Assembly: GCA_964016885.1 (NCBI GenBank)
Contig: OZ024743.1
Span: forward strand, 114,576,001-114,640,000
Source: Eledone cirrhosa
Taxonomy: Eukaryota
Direction of reading: 5' to 3'
Length of the DNA stretch: 64,000 bases
Shown: piece by piece, positions 1,686 through 53,531 of the stretch
How positions within the stretch are numbered: position 1 is the first letter of the stretch
Layout: each line of letters begins with the position of its first letter
Program-made: the position numbers and the translations under genes
Notes under the pieces: model-generated
The model's database searches: none
The model's input: the letters and a program-made list of their open reading frames with translations, nothing else
What the model was told of the DNA's origin: nothing

Positions 1686-2151
1686 TAGATTTATGGTATC
1701 CATTTACGTGTGTTGTATTGAGCCAATTAACTGTGTCGACTCTGGGATTTTTACATAATCTTAACTATTGAGTACGCCGAGATGCAACCTGTACTAACAG
1801 GGAAACCTTATACTAGTCCCGTCAGCTTATATATATATATATATATATATATATATATATATATATATATATACAGTTTTGTACTACATTTATATGTGTA
1901 TATATGATTAAATCTATGTCTTTGTCTCTTCCTCTCTCTCTCTCTATATATATAATAATGTATATACATGTAGAGATATAGATATATATATATATAGATG
2001 GACATGGGTACATGTAAATATGTATACACACACATATACACACACGCACGCACACACATACATACACACACACACATATATACACACACACACACACACA
2101 CACGTATATATATATATATATATATATATATATATATAGAGAGAGAGAGAG

Positions 2152-2318
2152 ATGAGATTCTACAGGACTAGAACTGTTTCATTCTCGAGAAATCATCTCA
2201 AGAATGAAACAGTTCTAGTCCTGTAGAATCTCATCTATATTAAAACTTCAATACTTTGCTATGTATTGAGTACCTTACTTACTGTGGTTACCTCCGATTC
2301 AACCCGGAATAACTTACC
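2152..2318 (+). mobile_element. Fold-back mini-element (hairpin plus tail)
   Basis: Near-perfect ~39 bp hairpin 2152-2234 containing GAAAcagttctagTC. The tail recurs at 41336-41416 and the arm recurs at 36183-36207. Confidence 0.75.
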
Positions 2319-2381
2319 TATATATACATATATATATATATATAGTGACGAAAAATTGCATGAACTCATAATCCTTTATTT

Positions 2382-2437
2382 ACTGCTATATATATTTCGA
2401 TGATAGCCATTGAATGGCTATGACCTCATCAGGCAGT
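2382..2437 (-). ncRNA. Minimal type I hammerhead ribozyme
   Basis: Minus strand: ACTGC CTGATGA ggtc atagccattcaatggctat catc GAAA tatata TA GCAGT, followed by AATAAA. Confidence 0.85.
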
Positions 2438-2615
2438 TAGTCATATATATATATATTCCATTTTGATAGAAGGAATGGTAAGAACATTCACAAATCTGAA
2501 CATCAGCGGACACGAAAAATGTTTAGATCTCGACGATATCATTGTTAAAGACATCTTAAAAAAAGTCTTAAATTTCTTTACTTTTTTGATTAGGGATTCT
2601 CCAAATCCCGAATTA

Positions 2616-2675
2616 ATATCCTGACGACGCTTTAGTGTTATCTGCTACTAGTGAAGTTGAAATGTGCGTAGATAT
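2616..2675 (+). ncRNA. Minimal type I hammerhead ribozyme
   Basis: ATATC CTGACGA cgctttagtg...tagtgaagtt GAAA tgtgcg TA GATAT. Confidence 0.7.
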
Positions 2676-2833
2676 AAAATGATTTAGAGTAAATCTCCGG
2701 TAGTCACTTGATTAAAAAAATATATGTATCTTTCCCTCTTTCCATATAAAGCGTGAAGCTAATAAGACTTTTTGTACCTGTTTTGTCGTTTCCTTGAACT
2801 ATATATATATATATATATATATATATATATATA

Positions 2834-3293
2834 TACGATATTAATAAATGGAAACTATATTTATAAAACCATATTTATTTCATTATACATATTTCAGGGA
2901 TACCAAATTAAATTATGGTATACCTTCATCAGACAAAATACAATATATAACAGTTTTACAAATAAGCTTTGACGTACCCTTTTAAAATGCGACCATTATC
3001 TTTGGAAGCCATCTGACTATCCAGATGGCTTCCAAAAATAATGGTCGCATTTTAAAAGGGTACGTCAAAGCTTATTTGTAAAACTGTTATATATTGTATT
3101 TTGTCTGATGAAGGCATACCATAATTTAATTTGGTATCCCTGAAATATGTATAATGAAATAAATATGGTTTTATAAATATAGTTTCCATTTATTAATATC
3201 GTATATCTACTCCAAATACTTGTCGAGTGCTTTATATCAGTTATAAAAATATTTACTTGTTCTATCCCAACAATTTTAAATAGAACTTTTGCA
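2834..3293. mobile_element. Palindromic PLE pLTR derivative (sister subfamily of the 52231-57364 element), hammerhead in each arm
   Basis: ~180 bp inverted arms centred at 3016-3021 with a 90 nt tail 3204-3293. HHR at 3097-3161 (+) and its mirror. Homologous to 53270-53483. Confidence 0.9.
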
Positions 3294-50021: not shown

Positions 50022-50877
50022 TATATATATATGTATATATATATATATATATATAATATATATATATATAATGTATATATAAAAATAACAAAATAAGATG
50101 CTGAGGTTACATATATCGTTTAAACATTATAATTATGTCCATGGTTCTCCATGCAATCGACATGTCCTTCATGCATTTGCTGTTGATTATTAGAACGGTA
50201 TCCTTAGATGAAAATAGATATGTTTGATATGTCGCTGGCAGGAAAAACACACGTCCTATTGCTTGTTTGTCCAACAGACATATGAGTTCCTTGAAGGGTT
50301 TGCCAGCCGTCATGTTTGATAGAAAATTTAATATATATAATATATATATATTTAATGTATTTAATATATATAGTATATATATATATTTAATATACATAAT
50401 AATAATAATAATAATAATATATATATATATATATATGGAACGATCGACTTTCGTCAAATCGGACCGACGGAACAATGTTTCCGTTGGTCTTTCCAATTGC
50501 TAATACTATCTATCGGTCGCAACTCCAGGTAGAAGGAGCAACGTGAAATAAAGTGTCTTGCTCAAGGACATAACGCATCGCCTGGTCCAGGAATCGAACT
50601 CACAACCTTACGATTGCGAATCCAATTCCCTAACCACTCAGCCACACGCCTTCATTGAATATATATATTGAATATATATAATATATATATATATATATTG
50701 AATATATATATAATATAATATATATATAAATATATATATATATATATATATATATATATATATATATATATATATATATATATATATATATATATATATA
50801 TATATATATATATATATATATATATATATATATATATATATATATATATATATATATATATATATATATATATATAT

Positions 50878-51436
50878 GTAGATAAATCTACCAAGAGTTT
50901 ACGGTAGTGTCCAATCCGTATGAAGAACTCAATGTATTCCGGATATCATGGAAAGAAGAGATGCAATGAAAAATCACTTTCGGTGAAAGATAAACGGAAT
51001 ACAGAGTCAAGATAAAATATTAAAAAAATAATGAATAAAACAATGAAACAGTTCCTTATATTAAACAAAAAAAGTTCATTATTTAACGATCGTTTCTAGG
51101 ATATATATGTGTTAGAATTGGCATGCATATTCAACAGATCTATGTACAAAATTATACAAAATTATACAAACTATCAAGATTAAATATACATACCAAACAC
51201 ACATATATGCCGTCTTCAGAAATTATTTCTGAAGACGGCATATATGTGTGTTTGGTATGTATATTTAATCTTGATAGTTTGTATAATTTTGTATAATTTT
51301 GTACATAGATCTGTTGAATATGCATGCCAATTCTAACACATATATATCCTAGAAACGATCGTTAAATAATGAACTTTTTTTGTTTAATATAAGGAACTGT
51401 TTCATTGTTTTATTCATTATTTTTTTAATATTTTAT
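50878..51436. mobile_element. Second copy of the 19973 palindromic mini-element, opposite orientation
   Basis: Same termini, centre at 51224. Confidence 0.9.
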
Positions 51437-51450
51437 ATATATATATATAT

Positions 51451-52214
51451 ATTAGAAAGATCGAGTATCGAAAAATCGGCGCACGAGTTCACGATAAACG
51501 AGATTCGACATGAGCGGCAGAGGGCTCAATAATTCAGATGAATCAGAGCTATAACTATCGTTAAAATACCGTCACATATAGAACAAGTCTACAATCAACC
51601 ATACGATATAAAATCGATAAAGGAAGATTCGGGACAAACAGATAAAAAATATCAATAAAACAATACGTCAATAATTTAAATGAATGTAAAATCATACCCG
51701 GACCCACTAGACAGGTGTTAAATCTAGCTTCATGGGTTTCTGTAAATCCTTAGACTGTACTCTATCAGCTCACATATAAATATAAAAGCCTACTAGAGCA
51801 AGCGGAACGGAGTTTTACTTTCTCAACGAGCTTTTTTCCTGGCGGTAGAGGAGCTAACTACCAGTGAAAAACGCACATGGCATTAGACAAGGGAGATAAC
51901 CCCTATATCCGCGAAAACAATTCGAGTGAATGTGGAAATACACATATCGAATTAGAGTGCTCAATAGACATGTTAAAATAAAACAAAAGCTATTCATCAC
52001 TCAATAGAATCGACAAAAAATGAGCAATAAAATTAACTGGTGGATAGCTATGTCCAGAGCTAAATATATTAGAAAGATCGAGTATCGAAAAATCGGCGCA
52101 CGAGTTCACGATAAACGAGATTCGACATGAGCGGCAGAGGGCTCAATAATTCAGATGAATCAGAGCTATAACTATCGTTAAAATACCGTCACATATAGAA
52201 CAAGTCTACAATCT
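51451..52214 (-). mobile_element. 617 bp unit with 146 bp terminal direct repeat, in TA
   Basis: 51451-51596 is identical to 52068-52213. No ORF. Confidence 0.75.
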
Positions 52215-53286
52215 ATATATATATATATATGTAAAGTTATATTTAAAATTGTTGGGTTACAACTAGTAAATATTTATAACTGATATAAAAGCACTCGACA
52301 AATATTTGGAGTATATTTACAATATTAAATAAATGGAAAACTATATTTATAAAACCATATTTATTTCATTATATATATTTCGGGGATATCATATTAACAA
52401 TATGCTATGCCTTCATCAGACAAAATACAATATAAACAGTTTTATAGATAAATATATTCGACATACCGTAATAAACATCAACTTCATTTGAAGAGGTTTA
52501 CGCTAGCAGTGAAAATACAGAGAGAAAGAAAGAGAGAAAGAAAAGAGGGAAAAAAAAGAAAGAAAGAAAGACAAAACGAAGAAAAGGAAGAAAAAGAAGA
52601 AAAAGAAAAAGAAGAAATGCATGGGACAAAATAGAAATGCATGGGACATAAACATATGAATTTTTTAAAACTAAACATAAGATAATGAATTTTCACACAT
52701 TGTGAATACTTGTTTCATTCAGGAATACTGATATTTACAATATAGTGTAAGTTTTATAAATACTAATACATTAAAACATAGGGTTTTCTACGCCTCGAAT
52801 ATGTCTGGCTATTTTTAAATTATTTTTTTTTCTCTCTCTATATCTCTCTATATCTCTCTATATATCTCCCTTACATTAATACTTGAGCTAAATAAATAAA
52901 TAAATAAATGAATAAATAAATAAATGTATCATTGATACACTTACTCAAAATGACCTCCCACTACCTAATTTTCTATATATATATATGTATCTATCTCTAT
53001 TTCCTCTCTCTCTCTATATATATATCTCTTTCTGTCTCTTTACATGAAGCTCTTCGCTTTATCTATTTTTCCATCTCTCTATTTTGTCCCATGCATTTCT
53101 TCTTTTTCTTTTTCTTCTTTTTCTTCCTTTTCTTCGTTTTGTCTTTCTTTCTTTCTTTTTTTTCCCCTCTTTTCTTTCTCTCTTTCTTTCTCTCTGTATT
53201 TTCACTGCTAGCGTAAACCTCTTCAAATGAAGTTGATGTTTATTACGGTATGTCGAATATATTTATCTATAAAACTGTTTATATTG

Positions 53287-53352
53287 TATTTTGTCTGATG
53301 AAGGCATAGCATATTGTTAATATGATATCCCCGAAATATATATAATGAAATA
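53287..53352 (+). ncRNA. Type I hammerhead ribozyme in the 5' pLTR (copies at 57255-57320 + and 52362-52427 -)
   Basis: TATTTTGT CTGATGA agg...cccc GAAA tatata TA^ATGAAATA. 8 bp stem I and predicted cleavage after 53344. Confidence 0.85.
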
Positions 53353-53531
53353 AATATGGTTTTATAAATATAGTTTTCCATTTATTTAATATTGTAAATA
53401 TACTCCAAATATTTGTCGAGTGCTTTTATATCAGTTATAAATATTTACTAGTTATAACCCAACAATTTTAAATATAACTTTACATGTATCTTGCTCCAAT
53501 ACTGTTGAGCGCTTTATATTATAACTGAAAA

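Follow-up and report, generated by a model that had tools for sequence, protein, structure and literature searches.

In a window of 64,000 nucleotides (nt) from Eledone cirrhosa (GenBank assembly GCA_964016885.1, contig OZ024743.1, positions 114,576,001 to 114,640,000, forward strand), which contains a Penelope-like element of the Hydra clade and many related fold-back copies, we found that the motif ATTGAG(T/C) near element ends is, as judged from covariation, the 3' strand of a conserved bulged hairpin and not a linear site. A preliminary description made from the letters of this window had noticed the motif in the tails of several families and had proposed a cis element that positions the second priming site. 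Full-length elements carried the hairpin twice (HP1 and HP2), placed between a hammerhead and the open reading frame (ORF), and element ends were found a few bases ahead of one or the other copy. Each hairpin probably binds the element's own reverse transcriptase (RT) on the RNA and sets the start of a complementary DNA (cDNA) just upstream, one for each cut strand, a function suggested by sequence comparison. The host genome is 3.0 Gb in size and AT-rich, and the window is crowded with fold-back elements sitting in (TA)n.

The layout of the hairpin was RCUC, a variable stem-loop, a two-base bulge beginning with U, and GAGY followed by NCU. The RCUC near the start of the tail pairs with GAGY, the following bases pair across the two-base bulge, and the loop ranged from 3 to about 100 nt. 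Variants of the motif fitted the same hairpin, ATTGAGC accompanying GCUC, and TC and TA being alternative bulges. A search for covarying structure around the motif, which had been suggested as a check, gave a positive result, and compensatory changes were significant both in this genome and in metagenomic relatives. With anchors chosen from sequence only, 52 of 66 upper-stem cells paired at a bulge of two, against 32.0 ± 3.5 under permutation (0 of 20,000 permutations as high), and none of the other bulge sizes gave more than the expected pairing. These counts came from 22 sets, 5 of 27 having been removed as redundant, and the outer pair across the 22 was A-U in 11, G-C in 10 and A-C in 1. 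A linear reading of the motif, as a splice site, a branch point, an initiator or a coding remnant, was considered by eye and abandoned once the 5' partner and the compensatory changes had been found. The hairpin was also recovered independently of the motif: the descriptor stood 3–16 nt from the terminus in 13 of 100 motif-independent clusters of terminus and continuation, with 0.53 expected. Changing the bulge size left 4, 2, 1 and 4 matching clusters, shifting the window left 1, 1, 0 and 0, and the reverse complement gave none. The remaining 87 clusters were unclassified and included SINE (short interspersed nuclear element) ends and internal TA runs, and probably other clades.

The relation of the two hairpins to the element ends was investigated in the one intact coding element of the window, which consists of an inverted truncated copy, a pseudo-long terminal repeat (pseudo-LTR) with a hammerhead, the ORF, and a 3' pseudo-LTR ending at 57362:
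52234..52635, minus strand: inverted copy with a 5' truncation; it ends at the long terminus and has its own HP1 at 52293-52312.
53295..53336, plus strand: hammerhead core (CUGAUGA...GAAA) of the 5' pseudo-LTR, from a pattern scan, 66 nt upstream of HP1.
53393..53481, plus strand: 89-nt tail between short and long terminus, from self-alignment, containing HP1.
53402..53421, plus strand: HP1, with ACUC, a 3-bp (base-pair) upper stem, a UC bulge and GAGU, found in the predicted minimum-energy fold.
53493..53510, plus strand: HP2, with GCUC, a 2-bp upper stem, a UU bulge and GAGC; the predicted fold has the lower stem and not the bulge.
53532..55748, plus strand: ORF of 738 amino acids, a putative RT followed by a C-terminal GIY-YIG-type nuclease, with Hydra-clade motifs.
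57263..57362, plus strand: 3' pseudo-LTR with hammerhead core, its short terminus running into (TA)n and no hairpin behind it.

In the self-alignment, 52234-52635 matched up to 53480 and 52646-53392 matched 56612-57360. Copies of the coding family have one of two end points, separated by 89 nt, and the stretch in between is the tail. HP1 of the coding element began 5–9 nt past the short-terminus position (~53393) and HP2 7–11 nt past the long-terminus position (~53482). From this second copy HP2 was predicted in other families as well, and every family whose leader was available had it after the long terminus (eight of eight, two in the window and six at other places in the genome; the families of 2265, 40340, 57579, 26023, 1767 and 27385 are outside this count). 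HP2 was seen only in full-length elements and never inside a tail. When microhomology with the target was allowed for, short ends lay 2–11 nt before HP1 and long ends 2–12 nt before HP2, the ends being blurred across AT-rich microhomology with the target. The HP1-HP2 spacing was 76–133 nt in seven families of this genome, and since the short end precedes HP1 and the long end precedes HP2, the tail is equivalent to this spacing. Two-ended insertions mostly combined one end of each type (39 of 44 classifiable pairs; 3 were short with short and 2 long with long), and short and long ends were similarly common (116 and 119). Three further apparent ends were treated as artefacts: those at -66 in family A and at -92 in family B are internal TA runs, and the one at -132 in family O is likely a SINE end.

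A link between a cis element and the priming sites, as first proposed, was supported; the motif is not, however, a linear site positioned from the long end. The 5' strand of HP1 starts a near-constant few bases past the short terminus, and its distance to the long terminus varied from 25 to 105 nt. The 50–60 nt originally noted is a by-product, because it is what remains between the 3' strand of HP1 and HP2. All the sites first reported were present: ATTGAGT at 1767, 2265, 20479, 25582, 26023, 40340 and 41366 on the plus strand and at 50927-50933 on the minus strand, together with ATTGAGC at 51524-51530 (minus), TCGAGTGC at 3223 and 53416, and TAGAGTGC at 27385. The eight ATTGAGT sites stood 51–61 nt before the next microsatellite (49 nt for 41366), in keeping with the spacing given, and the variants at 3223, 27385 and 51530 stood 60–78 nt ahead of it. 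The heptamer was not over-abundant in the window (17 matches, 13.2 ± 3.4 expected). Its position was enriched, with 10 of the 17 matches in the band 45–65 nt ahead of a microsatellite, a band that holds 5.4% of the free positions. An independent random sample of the genome (120 stretches of 10 kb, 1.2 Mb in total) gave GAGTGCT as the top heptamer 40–85 nt before junctions, in 35 of 1,534 flanks, against 7 in a more distant band of double width and 6 for the reverse complement; ATTGAGT occurred there 17 times at 41–60 nt before junctions, its reverse complement once. At family level the relaxed motif was found in 6 of 85 terminus families, compared with 1 and 1 in two controls.

The families had been called unrelated, and tails of different lineages indeed do not align outside the core, but the eight sites represent only five lineages (2265 with 41366, 94%; 20479 with 50928, 99%; 25582 with 40340, 82% over 44 nt). 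Among the three tails thought to lack the motif, that of 19508 is truly without it, but those of 16701 and 57579 lack only the heptamer, and their families have the hairpin in other letters (17050-17074; 58844-58916). The 60-nt tail family at 19447-19506, 49961-50020 and 63043-63102 has an ATG in the pseudo-LTR with an open frame continuing through the tail, has no hairpin behind its short end, and probably belongs to another Penelope-like clade. In its copy at locus L033 (~4329) a hairpin-bearing tail follows, possibly a nested insertion.

The hairpin was not confined to this genome. A metagenome scan with the single protein found no relative; a later alignment-based scan did, yielding 77 loci with 32–38% protein identity in 64 groups, 44 of which had a leader of at least 150 nt. 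These 44 leaders were non-redundant and marine. Anchored at the nearest 5' core, strict hairpins were found twice in 21 leaders, once in 14 and not at all in 9. An earlier rule, anchoring at the farthest 5' core, gave 19, 15 and 10 (0.1 of 44 in shuffles, 0 of 44 in the reverse complement); it mis-anchored several sites, and the nearest-core rule was used afterwards. The first upper pair was C-G in 40 and U-A in 20 of 71 cases, and a third type of outer pair, U-A, also occurred. Plain alignment of 72 segments gave 22 cells changed on both sides, compared with 7.7 in shuffles. The HP1-HP2 spacing was 55–70 nt in these leaders; HP1 lay 69–103 nt past the hammerhead core, and the 3' core of HP2 lay 19–46 nt ahead of the approximate ORF start. 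Of the seven (TA)n junctions that were mapped onto the leader to which they belong, six had a core 7–10 nt past the point where the run begins, half of them ahead of HP1 and half ahead of HP2; the seventh was a near-match by eye. In the leaders of loci L261-L337 the first upper pair of HP2 was C-G in 18 of 19, and that of HP1 was U-A in 10 and C-G in 9; from this difference HP1 and HP2 may not be equivalent.

Among the published Hydra consensi seen in PMC8557442, the coral Hydra-2_Amil and the sea cucumber Hydra-1_Ajap (twice) and Hydra-2_Ajap carry the hairpin by eye. Three 9-mers gave six matches in the supplement of that paper, of which four fall at the termini of Hydra elements and two within Naiad and Chlamys sequences; because the latter lacked the geometry, the hairpin is suggested to be limited to the Hydra clade.

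By the motifs given in PMC8557442, the coding element of the window is a Hydra-clade Penelope-like element. Its 738-residue protein has the N-terminal RWK motif as RWR at residue 37 (RWR or RWK in 33 of 43 aligned relatives), DKT at residue 118 (the Hydra-type change from DKG), CxCX5C at 597, CxxC at 695 and CxH at 722; the CX2-5CxxC linker had no match in this protein. YRDD at 352 and Y..YVG at 618-633 were both invariant in the alignment. A Pfam search of the ORF gave no match, the RT and nuclease assignment resting on these motifs. The nearest named protein relative was from Argonauta (39% identity), and 61 genome copies of the ORF were scored at 96–100% identity. The family also occurred in tandem at L023-L025, as three full-length copies with a period of 4,011 bases. 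The hammerhead core pattern stood at 53295 and 57263, and (TA)n flanked the element at both ends. Rfam gave no hammerhead match at these sites of the putative hammerhead; for the leader (53230-53560) it returned a single chance match (E 6.9), and for the whole window no fitting family at the hairpins among the 150 matches listed of 212. Hydra-clade elements described in PMC8557442 resemble the window's in protein motifs, (TA)n targeting, pseudo-LTR hammerhead, inverted 5'-truncated copy and one-sided tail; tails are about 65–170 nt here as compared with 30–40 there, and the repeat unit of the window family, from its tandem spacing, is about 4.0 kb as compared with 'generally <3 kb'.

The other hairpins of the window were the following:
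3209..3228, plus strand: HP1 in the tail of fold-back 2838-3289, which has a short and a long end; a relative of the coding family.
21323..21342, minus strand: HP1 in the tail of fold-back 21263-21687.
2253..2271, plus strand: HP1 (motif 2265); a C-to-T change in the 5' core preserves a G-U pair.
41354..41372, plus strand: HP1 (motif 41366), family of 2265.
20405..20485, plus strand: long-looped HP1 (motif 20479), lying within the tail (134 nt) of fold-back 19976-20531; full-length relatives have HP2.
50927..51007, minus strand: HP1 with 9-bp upper stem (motif 50928), family of 20479.
25959..26029, plus strand: HP1 (motif 26023) with 2-bp upper stem and long loop; short terminus unmapped.
1739..1773, plus strand: HP1 candidate (motif 1767), absent from the predicted fold; short terminus unmapped.
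27352..27390, plus strand: HP1 (variant 27385) with 7-bp upper stem and UA bulge.
51524..51549, minus strand: HP1 (variant ATTGAGC) with compensatory G-C outer pair; second copy at 52141-52166.
51959..52060, minus strand: HP2 of the 51452-52213 family, beginning 3–9 nt past the long-terminus position.
17050..17074, plus strand: HP1 of the 16701 family, with 5-bp upper stem and UA bulge; GAGG here, GAGU in family copies.
58844..58916, plus strand: HP1 of the 57579 family, with 5-bp upper stem; GU bulge in the window copy.
40340..40346, plus strand: 3' strand of HP1; 5' partner decayed here, intact in relatives L110, L121 and L230.
25582..25588, plus strand: 3' strand of HP1; 5' partner decayed here, intact in relative L084.
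32531..32576, minus strand: HP1 of another coding family, represented by a minus-strand ORF fragment at 5861-6844; beyond the sites first reported.

Several families had peculiarities of their own. One family (L095:5599-5951, L220) has a one-base bulge in both hairpins, so that within a family HP1 and HP2 seem to change in step. In the 20479-family leaders L179-L192 the HP2 loop is about 100 nt long and holds a variable-length (TA)n-like tract, the foot being retained. Family F (window 5861-6844, minus strand; loci L034 and L253) has a third terminus 22–23 nt into HP1, at an AT run, giving 33-nt tails, and this terminus partners short ends in most of the family's two-ended insertions. Among the remaining repeats, fold-back 25344-25632 has long-type ends on both sides and a centre that is a piece of a dispersed SINE-like family, found also at 7139-7339, 26961-27142 and 37063-37259; fold-back 27533-27829 includes a transfer RNA-like stretch at 27683-27753 (Rfam tRNA, 40.9 bits). 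A frame of 473 amino acids at 43386-44807 (minus strand) encodes a reverse transcriptase of the long interspersed nuclear element (LINE) type (Pfam RVT_1), and a frame of 222 amino acids at 13484-14152 (minus strand) may represent the end of a Helitron PIF1-type helicase, which it resembles by eye.

If the hairpins act as we infer, the nuclease would cut both strands of the (TA)n target, and each nicked (TA)n 3' end would anneal to the AU-rich bases ahead of a hairpin and prime there, the protein contacting the hairpin through the invariant CUC/GAG stem, the bulge U and the 3' NCU. One cDNA would begin ahead of HP1 and give the short end; the other would begin ahead of HP2, copy HP1 and give the long end with its tail; and the two would then be joined head to head. 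The template would have to be tandem, or circular after hammerhead cleavage, or else crossed by a template jump, because no hairpin follows the 3' end of the coding copy and HP2 is never in a tail. A circle after hammerhead cleavage was proposed in PMC4209133. In ORF-bearing copies the 5' ends clustered from HP1 to the end of HP2 (28 inside and 14 upstream, rate ratio 4, among copies picked for an intact ORF start and with limits chosen post hoc), and this concentration fits unit-length copying of a circle or tandem. As a tentative extension that we regard as possible though doubtful, the pair could form a landing pad for two RTs on a single hammerhead-cut circular RNA; each would start just ahead of its hairpin, from one nicked strand of (TA)n, and go round the circle as far as a bound hairpin, after which the cDNAs would be joined head to head. 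Such a design, if true, would explain the tail and the inverted copy together with the pseudo-LTR and the 5'-end positions, and any RNA given the hairpin pair would become a substrate, the signal being portable.

The main rival explanation is that the hairpins are cutting signals: RNA, cDNA or an intermediate of integration would be cleaved a few bases ahead of each, by the GIY-YIG nuclease or by one of the host, and these cuts would define the two ends. The positional data suit a cut equally well as a start, the tail was ascribed to nuclease-mediated resolution by Craig et al. (PMC8557442), and the tail of Drosophila virilis was required for nuclease recognition, as cited in PMC11167929; either strand may also be the one that folds (internal G-U 9, A-C 5). 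However, in the one in vitro system (PMC11167929) the ends were internal starts on unprocessed RNA and nuclease mutants were without effect on RNA cleavage, and the blurring of ends over AT-rich target microhomology is what annealing would produce; we consider cutting improbable. It is somewhat less likely still that the hairpins only load or package the protein and that the ends are set separately, by the nearest AU-rich stretch annealing to (TA)n. The bases ahead of the cores were 78% AT, compared with 63% for leaders, and the third end of family F sits in an AT run within the HP1 loop; yet AT-rich stretches are frequent throughout leaders, and the ends nevertheless stay 2–12 nt before the core, an offset that held while the HP1-HP2 spacing ranged from 55 to 133 nt.

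A role in expression, as a translation start on uncapped hammerhead-cut RNA or a promoter element, with an incidental link to the termini, would suit the near-constant distances of HP2 to the ORF start and of HP1 to the hammerhead core in the metagenome leaders. It leaves unexplained the equal terminus offset to two hairpins across hosts, loops of 3 to about 100 nt speak against a site in double-stranded DNA, and we hold this reading to be very unlikely. Neutral common descent or chance, by which the motif is a relic word shared by related tails, has practically no probability left. Although the eight sites reduce to five lineages and the raw heptamer count was ordinary, tails of different lineages were unalignable outside the core, the covariation tests rejected this reading, and the hairpin was kept in leaders whose proteins are only 32–38% identical to that of the window.

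Some observations weigh against start-setting by the twin hairpins. Concerning the ends, 24 of 68 outward-facing end pairs were excluded as unclassifiable, five of the 44 classifiable pairs had like ends, and in family F a third end is frequent within the HP1 loop (+22/+23, 15 flanks) and is followed by no hairpin; the way in which copies and limits were chosen also lessens the weight of the 5'-end pile-up. Concerning the structure, the exact hairpin was the predicted minimum-energy fold in just 4 of 12 window segments, and HP2 often had a single upper pair (8 of 19). Family D has one upper pair and then an internal loop, and family G has a one-base bulge and a mismatched outer pair, its long end being matched by eye across diverged copies. 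The three invariant CUC/GAG pairs served as anchors and count nothing toward pairing, either strand may be the folded one, as noted above, and half of the six novel Hydra consensi published in PMC8557442 (Crog, Obim and Amil-1) fitted imperfectly or unclearly.

Binding of RT to a structured RNA that fixes the start of synthesis is known elsewhere. The epsilon element of Hepatitis B virus is a bulged stem-loop bound by the RT that fixes the start of synthesis, its bulge templating a protein-primed start. Unlike epsilon, the hairpins described here have the ends outside them, 5' of the base and beside the target (TA)n. The eel LINE UnaL2 and its SINE need a small bulged RNA hairpin in cis for retrotransposition, a single one at the RNA 3' end that is copied into the insertion, whereas here there are two, each beyond the start linked with it (PMC1636434). 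A close parallel is the Poseidon element PAc of the green anole, for which two internal RT starts bounding the tail were placed in vitro, both target strands were nicked and extended, and RNA 3' of the starts was required (PMC11167929). These three features resemble the twin-hairpin reading; PAc belongs to another clade and its starts are inside the ORF, in an AC-rich stem-loop. A twin conserved element is not described in PMC11167929, the figures being outside the comparison; the binding motif is only hypothesised there, and no text about the stem-loop was found in the supplement. The words 'hairpin', 'stem-loop' and 'bulge' were not found in the main text of PMC8557442. In the full-text literature, a search of which left aside figures, Repbase entries, bioRxiv supplements and subscription papers, no description of the twin hairpin was found. 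The twin hairpin is apparently an undescribed, clade-wide cis element in a known class of retroelements.

Penelope-like elements are the closest retroelement relatives of telomerase. How their start sites are chosen, and how the one-sided tail and the inverted copy arise, has been a question for two decades; work in vitro in 2024 placed two internal starts but not the signal behind them (PMC11167929). We found an element of 20–40 nt, present twice per leader, in corals, echinoderms, this genome and many marine hosts. Its fixed offset from both ends makes the hairpin a precise mutational target for the existing assay. The hairpin pair likely marks for the copying enzyme the places at which to begin, which would explain the odd one-sided tail. 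Should the hairpin function as we suppose, it would be the minimal signal needed in cis by an insertion system that targets (TA)n.

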